Source: Stegostoma tigrinum
Taxonomy: Eukaryota
Direction: 5' to 3'
Length of the DNA stretch: 64,000 bases
Assembly (NCBI RefSeq): GCF_030684315.1
Contig: NC_081358.1
Span: 127,540,967-127,604,966 of the forward strand
Under the pieces are notes generated by a model. That model saw only the letters and a program-made list of their open reading frames with translations. It did not search any database and had not been told where the DNA came from. Shown piece by piece: positions 1,828 to 63,237 of the stretch (position 1 is the first letter of the stretch; the number at the start of each line of letters is the position of its first letter). The position numbers were made by a program, and so were the translations under genes.

Positions 1828-2146
1828 TATCCTTGTGTATCAGTCCTGATTAGCAACAACTAAAAATCTTCAAATCAAAGTCAGTTCTTAGAAACATTTG
1901 TGAACCGTCTTGACCCTCTGACAGCACGGCCCTCCTTTGGCGCTGCCATTGAGATGCCTTGATTATGTATCCATTTCTCTAGAATATACCTTGATCAAGA
2001 TTTAGGGGTGACTTCTAGATTGACCTGGGAACTACATGGCTGGTTACTCTGTATGTTGTGTCTTAGTGTCACTCACCCTATAGTTGCAGTCTCTAAAAGT
2101 GAAGCAAGCAAATGCTCAGCAGGCAATGGCTTGTCTGCACTGGTGG

Positions 2147-2422
2147 ATATGTCCACAGAACATGTAAAATCTATCTCTTGATCCTGTAACTAGGGAACCA
2201 ACATCCATGAGGACAGGGTCACAACACGGGGTGGAGTGAGATCAGCTGGAGATCACTCTTCACTGCCCTACCCCAACACGCTGCACACACTCCAGGCACA
2301 GGGAAAACAGCCCTGCCTGACAAGCTCCACGTCCCATAGACACCAGGACAACAGCCCCCTCTCCTGAGAGGCTGTCCCCCATTGAGAGAGCAGCTTCAAA
2401 CCTCTCAGGACAGACTCCCCAT
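2147..2422 (-). ncRNA. Candidate intronic structured RNA (H/ACA-like 3' end), copy 1, TTC19 intron 3
   Basis: Near-duplicate of 5034-5286. Several hairpins. Homology ends at ACATAT on the TTC19 sense strand. Family not recognised. Confidence 0.4.
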
Positions 2423-2453
2423 GGCCTTTGAACCCTAGGCCCGCGCTGCTTAC

Positions 2454-2564
2454 CTGTGTGTAGGTATAAGTGATGGCCTGGTTGTTCTGTGACTGCTGGG
2501 CAAGTTTTAGCGCCTGGTGCAAGTAACGGTCGGCATCTTCAAGCTCCCCTGTCATGGCACTCAG
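2454..2564 (-). CDS. TTC19: TTC19 coding exon 3
   Basis: 111 nt, AG...GTAAG boundaries. LSAMTGELEDADRYLHQALKLAQQSQNNQAITYTYTQ resembles TTC19 LSIMKDEPEEAELILHDALRLAYQTDNKKAITYTYDL (TPR helix). Confidence 0.93.
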
Positions 2565-3019
2565 CTGTAGAGAGGCAGGGAAGGTTAACAGGGAGCCAAA
2601 CAACCTCCCTCATCAATACAGAAACAATGTCTAACCAGAGCTCACACAAAAAAATGTACTGGCCAGAGCACCAGCTTGGAAACTGCTCAAACATCTGTGG
2701 GTTTTCCAAACTTGACTGTGGACAGAGAGCATGAAGTTGGTTGTTCAATGGCACAGAAGACCCTTACTACCATAAAACTGTACCCTCAATCTCTCCAAAC
2801 ATCTCAGCCTTTTGTGGGGAGGTGCAAGGGGAGTTGGGAAGAGGGTTCCAGATTTAGTCACGCACCCCTTCCCAACTATATTAGGGAGTTCTGAAGAAGA
2901 GTAATATCAGACTCAATGCTAACAGCTTCTCTCTCCAGAGATACAGCCAGGTCTTGGAGTTTCTCCAGTGTTTTGTTTTTTATTTCAGACCTCCAATATC
3001 TGCAGTATTTTGCTTTTAA

Positions 3020-4600
3020 GACCAGAAGGTTTAGGAGCAGGGGTACACCATACACCCATCAAGTTTTCTCTGACTGAACTGATAACCCTCAAGTCCACTT
3101 TCCTTCCTTCTCCCCAACAACTCTTGATTCCCTACCAGATAAAAACTCTGGAAGGATTTTGAACGTTCACTATCATCTGAGAGAAGAAATTCTTTCTCAA
3201 TTGTCTCAAATGTGTGACCCCTTATTTTGAAATTATGCCCTCCAGGGGAAACAACCTCTGCATTAACCCATGAACCTTGCATGTTCCAGTAGGTCCCTGC
3301 TTATTCTTCTAAACTTCAGAGTACAGGCTCAACCTACTCAAACTATCTCACAAGAGTATCCCTCCTTATCCAGGATCAAACTACTGAACCTTCTCTAAAC
3401 TGTCTCCAATGCCAGTGTGCCTTTTATTGGATAAGGGGCTCAGAACTGCTTCAAGTATTCAACTACAGTCTGACTTGTATAGGCCTTGTATAGTTTTAGC
3501 AAAATGACTCATTCCCTTTGTAAAAGGAAAGCGAAGATTGCATTTGTCTTCCCTATTACCTGCTGAACTTGGATACTGGCAATTTGAGATCCGTGCATGA
3601 GAAATCACAAACTCTATGCTGTAGCTTTCTGCAGGCTTTCTCTATTTAAATAATATTTGCCTCCTCTATTCTTCCTCACATGTCCACCACATAATATTCC
3701 ATTTAAAGTTTTTGCCCACTTGCTTAACCTGCCTATATGCCTCTGCAAAGTCTTTGTGTCACCCTCACTACGAGCCTTTCCACCTATCTTTGTGCTGTCC
3801 ACAAATTGGACTACAGTACAAATCATGAAAAGGGTAGATAGAAGTGGATAGTGAGAAGTTCCTTCCACTTGCAAAAGGAAGGAAAATGAGATGGCGTAAA
3901 TTAGAAGTCTCGCAAAAGCAGCAAATGTGATGAGAGTTCATTCTTTTCCACCTAGTGAACAATTAGGGTCTGGAACGTGCAGCCTGGAAACATGGTCGAG
4001 GCAGCATTCACTGATTACTTGGATACAATAACATGCAAGAGTGTGGCGGAGCAAGGACGTAGGAGATCGGTCACACATGACAATGTTCATTTGAGGAACT
4101 GTCGCGCCCAATGGCATCAATCTGCACCATAACAATTCTGTGATATATTGCAAATAATTGCAAGAACAGTATTGATCCCTATGGCACTCAACTAGTTATA
4201 GGTTATCATCTGAAAATACCCTCCGTTATACAAACTGATGTTTTAGCCAATTCTCTATCCAGGCTAATATAGTGCCTCCTTCTCTTATTAAATAGCATTA
4301 TGTGTGGTACCTTCTCAAACACCTTCTGAAAATCCTAACACATCACATTCACACTTTTCCCCTTATCTAATCCTCTTCATTATTACCTCAAAAGAATTCT
4401 AGAGAACTTATCAGGCATGTTTCCCATTGATGAAGCCATCTTACTATTGCTTGATTATATTTCTAAATGCTCTGCTATTACATCCTTTATAAAAGACGCT
4501 AGCACTTTCCCCAACAAGTGATGTTAAGGTAACTGGCTTACAGTTACCAAGCATTTTGGTTGCTTCTGTTTTCAAATTAAGGTGTTACATTGGCAGCTTT
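3020..4600 (-). mobile_element. CR1 LINE fragments, mixed orientation
   Basis: Decayed RT motifs (FVDSTKIGG, GHNFKIRG) on minus, with an internal plus-strand piece at ~3825-4140. Confidence 0.7.
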
Positions 4601-4759
4601 ATTATACTTGATCCGTGCTGACACCACAAGTTTATTCCTCCTGGTAAGGGTGGACGTCATTTGGGCCAGAATGGACAGCCAGAGGACCTACTGCTGACTG
4701 ATGAGATGACAATGTTTGAGCTGGCATAAAGGGAGAGTGAGAAGCAAACCATTCTGAAC

Positions 4760-4851
4760 CTTGGACTTTTTGATCAGTAGGATGATCGCATCCTCAGGGT
4801 CCTGTTGCTCCTTCTCATGGTGCGAGAACAACTGGATGGCAGCAAGAAACG
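4760..4851 (-). CDS. TTC19: TTC19 coding exon 2
   Basis: Pyrimidine tract + CAG acceptor, GT donor. Encodes FLAAIQLFSHHEKEQQDPEDAIILLIKKSK, resembling the TTC19 ...EAEIIQLLKRAK segment. Confidence 0.88.
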
Positions 4852-5033
4852 CTGGAGAGAAGGAAATCAGAAAACAGCACTTTAGAGAAAGTGAAAGAAA
4901 AGGAGGCTGGTTGGTGATCACAATTATGAGAGAGTCCAGAGTGAAGTAAGTGGATTGGCATGCTGACTATAATGGGGCAATCACCAGGGTAGGGGGAGGA
5001 ACAGGGGTGAACACTGCAGGGAGGGAGGGCGAC

Positions 5034-5286
5034 ATATGTCCACAGAACATGAAAAACCTATCTCTTGATCCTGTAACTAGGGAACCAACATCCATGAGGA
5101 CAGGATCACAACACTGGGTGGAGTGAGATCAGCTGGAGATCACTGTTCACTGCCCTACCCCAAGAGGCAGGGCACACCGCCTGACAAGCTCCATGTCCCA
5201 TCGATGCCAGGACAACAGCCCCGTCTCCCGAGAGGCTGCCCCCCACTGAGAGAGCAACTTCAAACCTCTCAGGAAAGACTCCCCAT
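5034..5286 (-). ncRNA. Candidate intronic structured RNA, copy 2, TTC19 intron 1
   Basis: Near-duplicate of 2147-2422. Substitutions in the first hairpin become G-U pairs on the minus strand. Confidence 0.4.
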
Positions 5287-5294
5287 AGTCCGTG

Positions 5295-6000
5295 GGGGGG
5301 GGTGATAGGGGAAGGTCGGGTGGGTGTGGGACGGGGGGGGGGTGATAGGGGAAGATCAGGTGGGTGTGGGACGGGGGGGGTGATAGGGGAAGGTCGGGTG
5401 GGTGTGGGACGGGGGGGGGTGATAGGGGAAGATCAGGTGGGTGTGGGACGGGGGGGGGGTGATAGGGGAAGATCAGGTGGGTGTGGGACGGGGGGGGTGA
5501 TAGGGGAAGGTCGGGTGGGTGTGGGACGGGGGGGGGTGATAGGGGAAGATCAGGTGGGTGTGGGACGGGGGGGGTGATAGGGGAAGGTCAGGTGGGTGTG
5601 GGACGGGTGGGTGGGGGTCACGGGGAAGAGGAGAACGGGGTAGGTGGAGGAGGGGGGGGAGAAGAAGAGAGGAAGGTCACGCGGGGGGGAAAGAGGGGAA
5701 GGTCACGGGGGGGGGAAGAGGGGAAGGTCACGGGGGGGGGAAGAGGGGAAGGTCACGGGGGGGGGAAGAGGGGAAGGTCACGGGGGGGGAAGAGGGGAAG
5801 GTCACGGGGGGGGGAAAGAGGGGAAGGTCACAGGGTGGGTGGGGAGGGGAAGGTCACGGGGAGGGGTGGGGCAAGGTCACGGGGAGAGGGGGTGGGGCAA
5901 GGTCACGGGGAGAGGGGTGGGGCAAGGTCACGGGGAGAGGGGTGGGGCAAGGTCACGGGGAGAGGGGTGGGGCAAGGTCACGGGGAGGGGTGGGGATCAC
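5295..6000 (+). repeat. Two G-rich minisatellites in TTC19 intron 1
   Basis: ~8 copies of ~40-nt G(n)TGATAGGGGAAG(A/G)TC(A/G)GGTGGGTGTGGGAC (5295-5610), then ~25-28-nt AAGGTCACGGGG-containing units (5670-6000). Confidence 0.95.
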
Positions 6001-6019
6001 GGTGAGGGTCAGAGCACTG

Positions 6020-6380
6020 CATGGACCCTGCGGCCCGGGCCACGGGAGCCCACAGAGAGGGGAATCAGGTCGGGACTGAGGACGTCGGGGGGAGGCGGGG
6101 TCAGTGCAGGCTCCGCCCAGGGCCGGGTGACCGACCGGTTCCACCCCTCTTACCCACTGCCGCCGCGCTCAGGTTCCCATTTCCGGGGCGGCCGCGGCTC
6201 TCCGTTCGGGCGTGGGCGTTGGCCGGGGCGGGGGCGGGGGCCGCGGCCCAGGCGCCGCGAATCCTGACCCTTCGGCCGCAGCTCAGGCCCCGGGATACTG
6301 CCGACGGCAGCATCACCCCGGCAACGGGGCGGAAACACGTCAACACCGGAAACAGGTAGCGGAACATTTGATCAACAGAC
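6020..6380 (-). promoter_or_regulatory. CpG-island-like TTC19 promoter/exon 1 region
   Basis: High GC and CpG density, GGGGCGGGG boxes, CGGAA (ETS-like) motifs upstream of the ATG. Confidence 0.6.
6154..6313 (-). CDS. TTC19: TTC19 coding exon 1 (putative mitochondrial presequence)
   Basis: ATG at 6313 reads MLPSAVSRGLSCGRRVRIRGAW... (Arg/Ala-rich, acid-poor). GTAAGA donor at 6153. 160 nt, phase 1, joins exon 2 in frame. GC/CpG-rich region. Confidence 0.75.
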
Positions 6381-6467: not shown

Positions 6468-6735
6468 AGTCTGGAATTAAAGTGTCTGGGTGGCGGGATG
6501 TGTGTCAGACTGATTTCTGATTTTGTGAGAACACGTTTTCTCACTGCTTTTTTGGTGGACTTTATAAAGTTAAGGTGTAAATTTAACCAGAAATAGTGTT
6601 TATTTCACACATTGTCAGGTGTACGGTGGGCAATACTTTACAACAGATACATGCTGACATGGCTGCACAAGGATTAAATTGAAAAGGATAAGGCAATTGT
6701 TCAGTTCGTAAAAAGTGCAAACAAACCGAGTGATA

Positions 6736-8086
6736 AAATGTGAGGCTGGATGAACACAGCAGGCCAAGCAGCATCTCAGGAGCACAAAAGCTGACGTTTC
6801 GGGCCTAGACCCTTCATCAGAGAGGGGGATGGGGGGAGGGAACTGGAATAAATAGGGAGAGAGGGGGAGGCGGACCGAAGATGGAGAGAAAAGAAGATAG
6901 GTGGAGAGAGTGTAGGTGGGGAGGTAGGGAGGGGATAGGTCAGTCCAGGGAAGACGGACAGGTCAAGGAGGTGGGATGAGGTTAGTAGGTAGCTGGGGGT
7001 GCGGCTTGGTGTGGGAGGAAGGGATGGGTGAGAGGAAGAACCGGTTAGGGAGGCAGAGACCGGTTGGACTGGTTTTGGGATGCAGTGGGTGGGGGGGAAG
7101 AGCTGGGCTGGTTGTGTGGTGCAGTGGGGGGAGGGGACGAACTGGGCTGGTTTAGGGATGCAGTGGGGGAAGGGGAGATTTTGAAACTGGTGAAGTCCAC
7201 ATTGATACCATATGGCTGCAGGGTTCCCAGGCGGAATATGAGTTGCTGTTCCTGCAACCTTCGGGTGGCATCATTGTGGCAGTGCAGGAGGCCCATGATG
7301 GACATGTCATCAAGAGAATGGGAGGGGGAGTGGAAATGGTTTGCGACTGGGAGGTGCAGTTGTTTTTTGCGAACTGAGCGGAGGTGTTCTGCAAAGCGGT
7401 CCCCAAGCCTCCTTGGCAACTGCACCTCCCAGTCGCAAACCATTTCCACTCCCCCTCCCATTCTCTTGATGACATGTCCATCATGGGCCTCCTGCACTGC
7501 CACAATGATGCCACCCGAAGGTTGCAGGAACAGCAACTCATATTCCGCCTGGGAACCCTGCAGCCATATGGTATCAATGTGGACTTCACCCGTTTCAAAA
7601 TCTCCCCTTCCCCTACTGCATCCCTCAACCAGCCCAGTTCGTCCCCTCCCCCCACTGCACCACACAACCAGCCCAGCTCTTCCCCCCCACCCACTGCATC
7701 CCAAAACCAGTCCAAACTGTCTCTGCCTCCCTAACCGGTTCTTCCTCTCACCCATCCCTTCCTCCCACCCCAAGCCGCACCCCCCGCTACCTACTAACCT
7801 CATCCCACCTCCTTGACCTGTCCGTCTTCCCTGGACTGACCTATCCCCTCCCTACCTCCCCACCTACACTCTCTCCACCTATCTTCTTTACTCTCCATCT
7901 TCGGTCCGCCTCCCCCTCTCTCCCTATTTATTCCAGTTCCCTCCCCCCATCCCCCTCTCTGATGAAGGGTCTAGGCCCGAAACGTCAGCTTTTGTGCTCC
8001 TGAGATGCTGCTTGGCCTGCTGTGTTCATCCAGCCTCACATTTTATTATCTTGGAATCTCCAGCATCTGCAGTCCCCATTATCTCT
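6736..8086. mobile_element. Penelope-like (Neptune-type) fold-back element, ~630-bp inverted arms
   Basis: Arms ~6733-7362 and ~7417-8046 encode the GIY-YIG C-terminus (RFAEH..VANHF..RRLQEQQLIFRLGTLQPYGIN). TSD AACAAACCGAGTGATA at 6720-6735 and 8087-8102. Confidence 0.92.
7959..7986 (+). ncRNA. Minimal hammerhead ribozyme motif in PLE terminal repeat (mirror copy 6793-6820 on minus)
   Basis: CTGATGA-A-GGGTCT/AGGCCC-GAAA-CG-TC: core boxes, stem II and palindromic ACGT stem III. Stem I is only ~2 bp (CT/AG). Confidence 0.7.
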
Positions 8087-40200: not shown

Positions 40201-41205
<1,005 letters not shown>

Positions 41206-45692: not shown

Positions 45693-48134
45693 TAGTATGG
45701 TTCACGAGGCTTATACCTGGTATGTAGGGAGTCTTGAGTAAATTGGGTCTGTATTCACAAATTTAGAATGAGGCAAGCTTGTTGAAATATACAAGACTCT
45801 TAACGCAGTCAATAAAGCAGATGCAGAAAGGTTATTTCCCTGATGAAGTATCATCTAGACTCACACTGTTAGCTTGCTTTCTCTCCATCGATGCTGCCTG
45901 ACCTGCTGCAATCTCCAACATTTTGTTTTTCAGTACAGATTCCAGTATCCCAAGGTTGTTTCTCTTGCACAAGAGTCTAGAACTAGAGGGCATAATCTGA
46001 GAATAAGAAGTTGCTTATTGAAGACATGTTTCAAAGGTTTTAACATTACTGACTCCTGCACAATCAACTTCCTCAGGGTTCCTATTGACCAAAAAGCGAA
46101 TTGGACCATTACTGCACTTATGTGAGCAGGTTAAAAGTCAGTAATTCTGTGCTGAGTAACTCACCTCCTGACTCCCCAAAGCCTATCCACCAACTACAAA
46201 TCTCAAGTCCAACAAAAGACATTTGATACTATTCAGGACAAAGTAGCCTGCTGGATTGGCAACACATTCTACTCATTCCACATCCTCTCCTTACACTTTC
46301 ACTCCCACCTATGATGTAGTTTGACAAGTGTGTATTTCCTACAAAAGGCATTGCACCGACTCACTAAGGCTCCTCCAGAAGCATCTCTCAAGCCCGCAAC
46401 CTCTACCATTTAGAAGGCAAGGGTAGCAAGTGCATAGGAGTACGCACCAAAAGAATATTTTCCTCCAAACCACACACAATCTTGACTTGGAAACAGATTA
46501 TCGCTCCGTCACTGTCACTGCCTCAAAATCCTGCAACATCAGTGTGTGCGTACCTACGTCAGGAGCTGTAGCGAGTCAAGAAGGCAGCTCACCAATGTTA
46601 TTCATGGATGTGTTGGGATTAATTTTTTGACTGAGTTCAATAAGCACCAACCATTGTGACAATATTGTGTGGAGTATTAGAGTAAAATAGCACCTTCTGG
46701 GGAACAGACCTCAAGTGAGCTCTTCCCAATAGTCTTCATAGTCAGGTCATGTTTATTCTTACAACTTACAAACAGTTTCAGAGATGCAAAGAAAAACTAC
46801 TTAACTACTTAATTTACAAGCCTTGTCTCATTAGACTAAAAGTTGGCATGTAAACAGGAAAGAGCCCACCCACTCAGAAAAGGTGGATAGCAATTCACAG
46901 TGATCATCACCTTCTCCAGGGCAATTAGGGATGGGGAGTGAATGCTGACATAGACAGCATTACCAACATACCATGAATAAGTACATTTTTCAAAATTAAT
47001 GAGAATGTGGGGGATGAGTCAAAATTAATTTAGTTTCGGTATCAGTAAAGTTGAAACAAGGTGCACAAGGGACTAGGAGAAACATCTTGAATCAATATGA
47101 AATCAGGTGACAACAGGGAGGGTCCAAGATAGATTGGAATGGAGACTAGTGTAACAATGTTTCCAGCACAAATATCCACGTAAGAAAATTTTTACAGAGA
47201 CCAAGCTCCAGAAAAAGAGGCCTGGATCATCAATATTCCTGAATATCAGGTGTACAAGAAAGAGAGGAGAAACAAGATATCAGCAGTTTAAATAATTGTG
47301 CCTGAAAGATTACAACATAGTGTTTGAGAGGTAGAACCATGAAACAGTGTGTAAAATTCTACCTTTAGCTATTATTTATTCAATGTTCATCACAACTGAC
47401 AGGGTCCACAATAAACTGGGTCCATCTGTTCATGCTTAACAGTGACAAGCTTAGTTGAACAGGTTCAAGAGAAATTAATGTGAAACAAGCAGGTTTATAG
47501 GAGACAACAGCTCTCCTGCCAGAAGATAGACCCATCGACAAATAATTAGCTAGGGACGACGGAAAAACACCAACCTTGGTTGTAACAGCAAAAAATACCA
47601 GATGTAAGCCAATCTTGACAAACTTTGGCAAATAGAACATCAAGAAAGAGCTGTAATTTAAGAAACAGGAAGAACTCCAAATGGGAGCCTGCAAAAATAT
47701 TCTAAGAAGGATATCAAAGTCAAGGCAAATGATTACAATGATTTTAGGGCAAAAGGGATCAGAGCCAATGTGGATCCCTTAAAGTGATAACAGTGATATT
47801 TTCAGTGAAAATCAAAGTGGCAGGCATGCTGTATTAAGAGATAACAAGGTGAGGAGCTGGATGAAAACAGCAAGACAAGCAGCAGCAGAGGAGAAGGAAA
47901 CATGATGTTTCGGGTCTGCACCATTCTTCAGATATGGGGGAGCGGAAGGGGATTCTGAAATAAACAGGGAGAGAGGGGGAGGCAGATAGAAGATGGATAA
48001 ATGGTGCCAATACATACTCTAGAGGAAGGAGTCACTGGCTGACCATGATAAGCAAACATATATTGAGACAAGGACTCACCGAGATGAATGTATCAAAGTA
48101 ACAAAAGTAAACACTGAAGGGAAAGAGAGACAAA

Positions 48135-48790
48135 CCTCCGACAGTGTTGCACTCCCTCAGCACTGACCCTCTAACAGTGCTCACGCCCTCAGCACTGACC
48201 CTCTGACAGTGCAGCGTTCCCTCAGCACTGACCTCTGAGAGTGCGGTGCTCCCTCAGCACTGGCTGTCTGACAGTGTGGCACTTCGTCAGCGCTGACCCT
48301 CCGACAGTTCACACTCCCTCAGCACTAACCATCTCACAGTGCTCCCACAGAGCAGCAGTCCCTCAGCACTGACCCTCCCGCAGTGCGGGGGCTACCTCCA
48401 CACTGACCCTCTAACAGTGCTTCGCTCCCTCAGCGCTGACCCTCTGACAGTGCAGCATTCCCTCAGCGCTGATACCCTGATCATGCAGTAATTCCTCAGT
48501 AATGAATCTTTGAAAGTGCTGTCCTCCACAAGTCCTGATATTCCAACAGAATAGCGTTCCCTCAGTATTACCCCCCCAACTGTGCATATGACTTTCAATC
48601 CTGAATCTGCAACAATATGACACTCCCTCAGAACTACAGTGCTGCATTTCCTCAGTACTGACAGTCCAACAGTGTGCATACCTTCAGCACTCCCTCACCA
48701 CAGACCCTCCAACAGGGCAGCACTCCTTCAGTACTGACGCTCTGACAGTCTGGCACACACACAGTTATGACCATCTGACAGTGCTGCACA
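48135..48790 (+). repeat. 33-bp minisatellite (degenerate array)
   Basis: Unit CACTCCCTCAGCACTGACCCTCCGACAGTGCGG. Confidence 0.9.
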
Positions 48791-53346: not shown

Positions 53347-54351
<1,005 letters not shown>

Positions 54352-59129: not shown

Positions 59130-60660
59130 AATGTGGCACTCCCTCAGCAGCGACACTTCAATGGTGCTGCCTTAACTCGATGCTGACTCTCCAACAGTAC
59201 GACAGTCTCTCAGCACTGAAGCTCCAACAATACGGTATGTGCTCAGTACTGACCCTCTGACAGTGCAGCATTCTCTCAGAATTGACCCACCAGTGTGTCG
59301 ATCCGTCCGCACAGATCCTCCGACAGTGCAGTAATCCCTACGTACTCATGTTTTAACAGTGTTGACCACCAACAGTGTGGCACTCCCACAGCAATGACGC
59401 TGCGACAATGCTTCACTCCCTCAGTACTGACCCTCTGCCAATATGTCACTCCCTCAGCACTGACTGTCCAACAGTGCAATGTTCCCTCAGCACTGACCAT
59501 CCAAAAGTACGGCACTCCCTTGGTTCTGACCCTTCGATAATGCAGCACTCCCTCAGCACTGACCCTCCGACAGTGCAGTGCTCTCTCAGCACTGAACCTC
59601 CGAAGGTGCGGTGCTCCCTCAGCAATGACCCTCCAACAGTACCCTCTCCCTCGGCACTAACCCTCTGACAGTGCAGCACTACCTTAGCACCAACCCTTTG
59701 ACAGTGTGGCGCTCCCTCAGCACTGACCCTCCAACAGTGCCTGCTCCCTCAGCACTGACCCTCCGACAGTGCGGCGCGCCCTCAGCACTGACCCTCCGAC
59801 AGTGTCCGCTCCCTCAGCACTGACCCTCCGACAGCGCGGCGCTCCCTTAGCACTGACCCTTCGACAGTGCGGCACTCCCTCAGCACTGACCCTCCCACAA
59901 TGCGGTGCTCCCTCAGCACTGACCCTCCAACAGTGCGACACTCCCTCATCTCTGACCCTTCAACACTGCAGTGCCCTCCGACAATGCAGCACTCCCTCAG
60001 CACTGACCCTCCAACAGTGCATGCTCCTTCAGCACTGAACCACCAACAATGTGTCAAACCCTTAGCACTGGCCCTTAGACAGTACGGTTTTACCACAGCA
60101 TTGAGCCTCCAACAGTGCAGTGCTCCCTCAGATAGTGCAGCACTTTCTCAGTACTGTCTCTCTGACAGTGTGTCACTCCCTCAGCACTGATCCTGCAACT
60201 ATGCAGTGCTCCCACAGCAGTGACCCTACAACTGTGCTGCCTTCGCTCATATGGAACCTCCAACTGTGCTGTCTTCACTCAGCACTGATCCTCTAACAAT
60301 ACAGCACTCCCTCAGCGGTTACCCTTCAACTGTGCTGCCTTTGCTCAGCACTGATCTTCTAAGATGATCCAACAGTGTGACCTACAGTCAGCACTGATCC
60401 TCTGACAGTGTGGCATGCCCAATGTACTCACCCTCCGACAGTGTGGCACTCTCAGCACTGCCCCTCCAACAGAGTGGTGCTCCCTCAGTACTGACCCTCC
60501 GACAGTGCCCACTCCCTCGGCACTGACCCTCTGACGAAGCAGCACTCCCTCAGTACTGACCCTTCATCTTTGCTGCCTTCATTCAGTTCTGACCCTCTAA
60601 CTATACGGTCTTCACGTAGCACTGACCCTCTGACAGTACAGCACTCTCTCAGGATCAATC
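59130..60660 (+). repeat. 33-bp minisatellite, main array (continues at 61335-61610)
   Basis: Dozens of CACTCCCTCAGCACTGACCCTCCGACAGTGC-type units, most homogeneous at ~59540-60030. Confidence 0.93.
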
Positions 60661-60669
60661 CTCTGATAT

Positions 60670-61325
60670 GGGGCTCAGTGGTTAACCCTGCTGCCTCACA
60701 ACACCAGGGACCTAGTTCAATTCCAGCCTCGGGAGACTGTCGTGTGAAGTTTGCACATTCTCTCCATGTCTGCGTGTGTTTCCTTTAGGTGCTCCACTTT
60801 CCTCCCACAGTCCAAAGATGTGTAGATTGCCATGCGAAATTACCCATAGAGGATGACTAGGTTAGTGGCTTAGTAATGGGAAGTACAGGGTTACAGGGAT
60901 AGGGTAGAGTGTGACAACACAGTGTGGAGCTGGAGGAATGCAGCAGGCCAGTCAGCATCAGAGCAGGAAAGTGACATTTTGGGTTGGGACCCTTCTTCAG
61001 AAATGGGGGAGAAGGAAGGGAACTCGTAAATAAATAGAGAAAGGAGGGATGGGGTTGGGGAAGGTAGGTGGCATGGTGACAGTTGGGTGCAGGTAGGAAG
61101 TGGTGGGGATTGATCAGTGAGGTAGATAAGGCGAATAGGTGGGAGAGAAGATAGATGGTTTGTGTCAGGTCAAGAAGGTGGGGCTGACAGGGAGGGTTGG
61201 TCATAGGAGAGGCGAGGGATGGGGAGATTTTAAAACTGATGAAACGCGGGTGCAACACCTCATATTCCACCTTGGGAGCCTACAGCCCAATGGCCTAAAT
61301 GTGGATTTCACGAGTTTTAAAATCT
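60670..61325. mobile_element. SINE fragment (+) followed by degenerate PLE ends
   Basis: SINE head at 60670; PLE 3' repeat on minus from ~60915; short inverted GIY-YIG tail at ~61250-61325. Confidence 0.7.
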
Positions 61326-61537
61326 ATTTATTTTCTGACCCTCTGACAATGCAGCACTCTGTCAGCACTGACCCTCTGACAGGAAAGCAACACTGATCTT
61401 CTAACAATGAAATCTCCTTCAGTACTGATCCTCTGACAATGAAGTACTCTCTCAACACTGACTCTCTGACAATGGAGTACCCTCTCAATACTGCTACAGT
61501 ATGGAGATCCCTCAACACTGATTCTCCAATAGTGCGG

Positions 61538-63237
<1,700 letters not shown>

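Follow-up and report, generated by a model that had tools for sequence, protein, structure and literature searches.

A two-copy intronic element in TTC19 of Stegostoma tigrinum as a candidate atypical box H/ACA-type RNA

The TTC19 gene of Stegostoma tigrinum contains a near-identical element of 255 to 278 nt in two of its introns, in both cases on the sense (minus) strand. The analysis is based on a stretch of 64,000 nucleotides (the window; RefSeq assembly GCF_030684315.1, contig NC_081358.1), and the positions of the features are collected in Table 1. The host is identified by its exon 3, the translation of which matches shark TTC19 proteins (top match a Stegostoma tigrinum record, 97%). tblastn with shark TTC19 proteins as queries assigns copy B to intron 1 and copy A to intron 3, in agreement with a first-pass annotation of the sequence. 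That annotation also described 2147-2422 and 5034-5286 as near-copies with unrelated flanks, and both statements are borne out. The copies align on the minus strand with 85% identity over 276 columns (a 23-nt length difference counted in), or with 94% identity outside the rewritten block (15 substitutions in 237 positions), and their flanks align no better than shuffled sequence (330/1000 and 973/1000 shuffles align equally well). The position within introns 1 and 3, in sense to a Pol II host, is the one that membership of the box H/ACA sno/scaRNAs requires.

Intron 1 is filled by C-rich tandem repeats (units of ~39 and 25 nt) from 5294 to 6014, directly adjoining copy B on its 5' side, and read cover is thin over this part. 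Upstream of TTC19, some 400 bases from its start codon, two retroelement fragments of 630 nt (6733-8046) form an inverted repeat with 99% complementarity and a spacer of 54 nt. Elsewhere in the window, two near-identical unbroken reading frames of 334 codons are found 13 kb apart (40201-41205 and 53347-54351), which we take to be actin, presumably as tandem, intron-poor genes. Degenerate 33-nt repeat arrays (48124-48784 and 59139-61597) are present on both sides of the second actin region.

Table 1. Features of the element and of its host gene, in window positions.
Feature	Positions	Strand	Basis or remark
Copy A, 278 nt as analysed, TTC19 intron 3	2147..2424	-	alignment, tblastn; begins 29 nt past exon 3 donor
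Copy B, 255 nt as analysed, TTC19 intron 1	5034..5288	-	alignment, tblastn; stops ~180 nt short of exon 2 acceptor
TTC19 exon 3 (host)	2454..2564	-	protein match, tblastn
TTC19 exon 2 (host)	4760..4851	-	tblastn
TTC19 exon 1, coding part (host)	6154..6313	-	tblastn, query residues 1-53
Rewritten block (39 nt in A, 16 nt in B)	A 2276..2314, B 5163-5178	-	alignment and fold; own local hairpin per copy
47-nt run without differences between A and B	A 2171..2217, B 5058-5104	-	length no greater than chance, p=0.47
ACA box, copy A	2150..2152	-	3 nt short of homology end
ACA box, copy B	5037..5039	-	3 nt short of homology end
Candidate H box ACAGGA, copy A	2182..2187	-	sole ANANNA of copy
Candidate H box ACAGGA, copy B	5069..5074	-	sole ANANNA of copy
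Closing helix, 5' strand (predicted)	A 2413..2421, B 5277-5285	-	also 5' antisense strand of tentative helix 69 match
Closing helix, 3' strand (predicted)	A 2191..2199, B 5078-5086	-	
Hairpin 1 (predicted)	A 2362..2410, B 5226-5274	-	
Best-supported long-range helix, 5' strand (predicted)	A 2327..2344, B 5191-5208	-	partner A 2200-2217, B 5087-5104
UAGUUAC, 7/7 complementary to 28S helix 69, tentative 3' antisense strand	A 2186..2192, B 5073-5079	-	not significant in free null
Part of copy B used as coding exon (MGHG...SW)	5157..5201	-	RefSeq isoform X2; donor G|GTAGGG at 5158

A high genomic copy number had been named in advance as the sign of a transposon. A genome-wide BLAST search (3.2-Gb genome) returns two matches, which are the two TTC19 copies, and the search with a 23-nt pattern allowing two mismatches finds the same two. 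Profile searches of the 64-kb window, the 60 kb downstream and 11 other RNA loci reveal no third copy, and no further copies are seen inside TTC19. Depth per bin is exon-like (8-27 for copy A, 1-15 for copy B) against 10^2-10^6 for most neighbouring repeats, and neither a poly(A) tail nor a target-site duplication was found at the element ends. Given the single-copy depth and only two genomic copies, the transposon reading fails. Depth and ends were checked on four public runs, all contigs of one study, for which the kind of data is not on record. At window position 2411 all four runs have T where the assembly has C. This allele or assembly difference corresponds to a sense G->A change at element position 14 (numbered from window 2424 of copy A), a variable position that is U in copy B.

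On the sense strand the homology halts exactly at GG-ACA-TAT in both copies, as the first-pass annotation had claimed, and the same ends are present in contigs from the public runs. If the end of the homology is taken as the end of the RNA, the ACA is placed 3 nt from the 3' end in both copies, as in H/ACA RNAs. ACAGGA was put forward as the conserved ANANNA and is indeed the sole one in either copy. The earlier remark that it is not at a clear hinge holds only in part: it is mostly engaged in pairs of the 3' hairpin, but it also follows 3 nt after a predicted long-range closing helix. In this gene region the frequency of ACA, and likewise that of ANANNA, is 0.017 per base, so each box placement amounts to a coincidence of a few percent, judged post hoc. 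As a control we used U17, for which five of the seven matches in this genome were aligned, giving ten paralogue pairs. Seven of these stop aligning at or near the ACA (76-94% identity) and three keep aligning through the flank. Signatures of other classes are missing from the element. The CAB box (ugAG) of H/ACA scaRNAs is absent from the terminal loop, with the sole UGAG in the stem of hairpin 1, and there is no terminal C box (RUGAUGA) and only an internal CUGA, so that the C/D and composite C/D-H/ACA classes do not apply. Neither copy has an Sm site, a telomere template or the U17 motifs m1 and m2.

The best-supported predicted helix joins element positions 81-98 with 208-225 (p 0.84-0.98), and the three paired substitutions in it are all G-U compatible. 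The first conserved bases (4-12) are predicted to form a closing helix with 226-234, at p=0.87 for B and 0.36 for A, and ACAGGA is located at 238-243. The resulting predicted layout consists of a long branched 5' domain, the H box, a 29-nt arm, the ACA and 3 nt. Folding of either copy predicts hairpin 1 (15-63) as well as a hairpin at 150-198. Of the hairpins drawn in the first-pass annotation, two are supported, hairpin 1 with p>0.9 when either copy is folded singly and the GGGGT/ACCCC-GATC hairpin with p about 0.6-0.7. The third one (TGTCC..ATGT/ACAT..GGACA) has to be dropped: TGTCC instead pairs with GGAC(A/G) at 91-95 (p 0.98), and copy B reads TCAT. Typical H/ACA hairpins measure 55-70 nt (passages of PMC5207380). 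The element does not adopt this canonical two-hairpin form, with a branched 5' domain of predicted 205-230 nt and a 3' arm that, with the H box unpaired, has 29 nt and about -2 kcal/mol. Preferred folds pair ACAGGA with UUCUGU, and unpairing the H box costs 5-8 kcal/mol.

At least three architectures fall within 15 kcal/mol in both copies. A giant-hairpin fold (1-7/266-272 plus 8-13/253-258) is permitted in both at 8-15 kcal/mol above the optimum, and the alignment fold favours 7-16/250-259 (p 0.51). Such folds would suit a structured intronic RNA of another class that is not dyskerin-bound, either as a giant hairpin closed before the ACA or with a protein-binding role. The missing C box, Sm site, telomere template and U17 motifs argue against this, as does a similarity to RNase MRP, RNase P, telomerase RNA and U11 that does not go beyond shuffles, and we consider this reading very improbable.

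Copy B is more stable than shuffled sequence (z=-3.5) and copy A is not (z=-0.6). The differences in hairpin 1 had been described as G-U compatible on the sense strand, which is true for positions 32 and 60 but does not extend to all 15 substitutions, where the fold is kept at chance level. The substitutions break 6 pairs in the sense fold of B (6.97 expected, p=0.38) and 5 in that of A (5.55 expected, p=0.47), the antisense-strand controls give p=0.21 and 0.48, and none of the 82 predicted pairs has a compensatory change. Since pairs are broken as often as by random substitutions on either strand, the G-U argument is weightless overall. This randomness with respect to the fold would fit G-rich intron sequence that was duplicated locally, neutrally and fairly recently (or that belongs to a mobile fragment of very low copy number), with the ACA+3 end arising by chance. 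The same can be said of the 47-nt identical run, which is expected by chance, of the z-score of copy A, and of the fact that no family, target or orthologue is assigned. Yet the ends are sharp, with unalignable flanks and no target-site duplication or poly(A), two box coincidences would be needed, copy B is stably folded and the genome has no other copy. We regard neutral duplication as a rather unlikely explanation.

A further reading concerns the splicing of the host. RefSeq TTC19 isoform X2 starts with MGHGACQAVCPASW, which corresponds to window 5201-5160 inside copy B, and is spliced to exon 2 at G|GTAGGG. Its first 14 codons are taken from copy B in place of the N-terminal exon, which likely carries the mitochondrial targeting peptide. 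As RefSeq models usually rest on spliced reads, this suggests that transcripts extend over at least a part of copy B. The element might be a structured cis element of the TTC19 pre-mRNA that governs splicing (as cryptic or poison exon, or through donor choice), and not, or not only, a free RNA. Copy A retains the same donor sequence and begins close to the exon 3 donor, bamboo shark TTC19 isoforms skip exon 3 or exons 4-5, and there is precedent for intronic snoRNAs that steer host splicing, e.g. SNORD2 (passages of PMC10324135). Nonetheless, conservation continues for ~125 nt beyond the donor and halts at ACA+3, candidate acceptors are not alike between the copies, the donor is weak and in copy B lies inside a B-specific hairpin, and the isoforms are automatic models. 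Altogether we find a splicing element unlikely.

The first-pass annotation did not recognise the family, and comparison with Rfam 15 agrees with this: no match to the element is obtained at gathering (window plus 60 kb downstream), and at E<=10 (1900-5500) only chance matches appear. Genes for telomerase RNA, SNORA74, SNORA53, SNORA73, SCARNA13, RNase MRP and RNase P were located elsewhere in this genome, and none of them aligns with the element convincingly above shuffles. The nearest misses among many comparisons are U17 (6/200 shuffles), telomerase RNA (7/200) and a 33-nt stretch of SCARNA13 (28-153/1000). Over 20 comparisons the local similarity to SCARNA13 and U17 is not significant. Some words of the element resemble, as we presume, RNase MRP, 7SK and U11; for RNase MRP and U11 the similarity is no higher than in shuffles. 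Two RNAs from other vertebrates were set aside as well, chicken Ggn68 (227 nt), which is SNORD97-like and located in LARP4, and Xenopus pugU2-43 (214 nt), for which no U2-43 pocket was found in the element.

Searches of the literature on TTC19 with snoRNA, scaRNA and intronic-RNA terms and on element words yielded no description in the portions of the sources that were searchable. No mention of TTC19 occurs in the text and supplement of PMC6984369 as far as searched, in the searched passages of PMC2770669 or in three searched supplement files of PMC4914119. A metagenome pattern scan for orthologues of the element gave 0 matches, and translated-frame searches for orthologous host stretches gave no usable match (one protein match was repeat-inflated and discarded). 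The exon 3 alignment scan retained one locus from 385 candidates, which proved to be bacterial sequence lying between tRNA-like genes and was discarded too. Relative to Rfam 15 and the human, chicken and Xenopus lists searched, the element is likely uncatalogued; the exceptional snoRNAs of Marz et al. 2011 are outside this comparison.

Guiding of pseudouridylation would be the likeliest job of such an RNA. Targets were sought in the 18S, 5.8S and 28S and in nine snRNAs, all of this genome. Contiguous antisense to rRNA or snRNA does not exceed 13 nt, G-U pairs included, and is treated as chance. The scan for two-part pockets leaves 4 of 1457 uridines with the highest score, 13, where the null gives 1.7 on average. 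One of the four is a known pseudouridine: the helix 69 site that is modified in human (28S 3743) and Xenopus (supplement of PMC6984369). This uridine is flanked by matches to GGGGAGU (5-11) and UAGUUAC (233-239), 14 nt ahead of AGAGAUA. A five-pair lower stem is possible in this layout and compatible with both copies. With the share of modified uridines taken as 9%, the match is not significant (p about 0.14), and p 0.008 is obtained only with the 5' strand restricted post hoc to the first 15 nt. It also requires AGAGAUA as a non-canonical H box, a type of box that entered the scan after the match was noticed, and opening the fold would take 18-24 kcal/mol before the target is bound. SNORA14 is a case in which a non-canonical H box is tolerated. 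Neither canonical box offers a convincing pocket; a 28S match with score 13 that uses the canonical H box (GAAUCAAC-U-AGCCCUG) was rejected, having no upper stem and a site that is unmodified in human and Xenopus. Elsewhere in the genome a shark SNORA74 has an intact pocket for the same helix 69 site. The best single candidate target, albeit a doubtful one, would be the uridine of helix 69 that corresponds to human 28S Psi3743.

Summarizing, we think it fairly likely that the element is an uncatalogued, atypical intron-encoded RNA of the box H/ACA type. This reading is favoured by the ACA+3 boundary, the sense intronic position and the layout of closing helix and H box. The H/ACA-like behaviour resides in the ends; the canonical two-hairpin test failed, and the element is no member of any named family tested. 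Of the functional intronic RNA proposed in the first-pass annotation, the end, the position and the distinction from a transposon are retained, whereas the G-U argument and the third hairpin are lost. The two copies would be paralogous genes of one H/ACA-type RNA of about 255-280 nt, trimmed by exonucleases from spliced, debranched TTC19 introns and ending 3 nt after the ACA (compare passages of PMC5207380). By analogy with established H/ACA biology, dyskerin, NOP10, NHP2 and GAR1 on the boxes would block the exonucleases. The copies may be kept alike, as the flanks drift, by selection acting on the RNA, with gene conversion or without it. In the predicted fold the 5' domain is long and branched, its closing helix running from the first conserved bases to 3 nt short of the H box, and the 3' arm is very short. 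RNAs whose hairpins are aberrant reach only low levels if no BIO loop assists them (passages of PMC5207380), and as no BIO loop is evident in the element this counts against high expression. A more far-reaching proposal, which we hold to be quite improbable, is a new H/ACA RNP architecture with a 200-nt multibranched 5' domain and a minimal 3' arm, acting as a switchable guide or chaperone of helix 69 and modulating TTC19 splicing as well. Here the closing helix would hide both antisense strands and open only on 28S helix 69, a part of the joint reading to which we give the same low credence.

If expressed, the element adds a long H/ACA-type family that is missing from Rfam 15 and from the searched human, chicken and Xenopus lists. 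To our knowledge, snoRNAs of the shark lineage are known almost solely by homology. Its layout would test the shortest 3' arm that dyskerin tolerates, with a bearing on the biogenesis of telomerase RNA and AluACA RNAs. The helix 69 guides we know of (SNORA23, SNORA74 and SNORA53) are all unusually long, and a fourth one, if true, would be worth having. In case of an ordinary orphan snoRNA the gain is one catalogue entry.

Several known RNAs resemble the element in part. SCARNA13 (U93, RF00231) is of the same size class, and its shark gene has the 33-nt stretch that is similar to the conserved block, but this similarity is not significant (28-153/1000 shuffles over 8 tests), the four-hairpin layout with two H boxes is lacking and the gene is located elsewhere. 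SNORA73 (U17/snR30) is a long H/ACA RNA with paralogues across several introns and a similar boundary behaviour; however, m1 and m2 are missing from the element, and the U17 cluster is found elsewhere in the genome. SNORA74 (U19, RF00090) is likewise long, has similar antisense words (GAGAGU/UAGU) and guides 28S Psi3741/3743 (supplement of PMC6984369), the site of the tentative match. It differs by its own pocket 14 nt from the ACA, whereas no upper stem closes the pocket of the element, and the alignment is not significant (72/200 and 113/200 shuffles). The single SNORA74 found (C15:75481538-75481744) has in its predicted 5' pocket GUUAG where the helix 69 pairing wants GUUAC, giving one pair fewer.

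The H/ACA domain of telomerase RNA and the long AluACA RNAs share with the element an abnormally long 5' hairpin ahead of the H box (passages of PMC5207380), but the element is without a template, a CAB box in a loop or a recognisable BIO loop and is not repeat-derived. This genome has two near-identical telomerase RNA genes of ~590 nt on separate contigs (C17:77593428-77594013 and C22:22567746-22568336). SNORA53 (ACA53, RF00563) is, like the element, intronic and ~250 nt in length, with an ACA-NNN end and a long branched 5' hairpin, and it has an upstream antisense strand near its 5' end and a target in 28S helix 69 (passages of PMC8763049). Unlike the element it possesses a complete 3' hairpin and a canonical H box behind the pocket; there is no sequence similarity (17-96/200 shuffles as good), and true SNORA53 is found on other contigs. 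Two SNORA53 copies lie 4 kb apart (C33:53100441-53104868), and more dispersed matches include C50:11663145, with six of eight over the cut-off. The geometry of the helix 69 match recalls the upstream antisense strand of SNORA53, located at nt 10-17 under an unstable distal stem, and SNORA53 is a 250-nt guide that is functional despite its long branched 5' hairpin and poor distal stem (passages of PMC8763049). In its predicted layout the element comes nearer to SNORA53, telomerase RNA or the long AluACA RNAs than to a guide of 135 nt.
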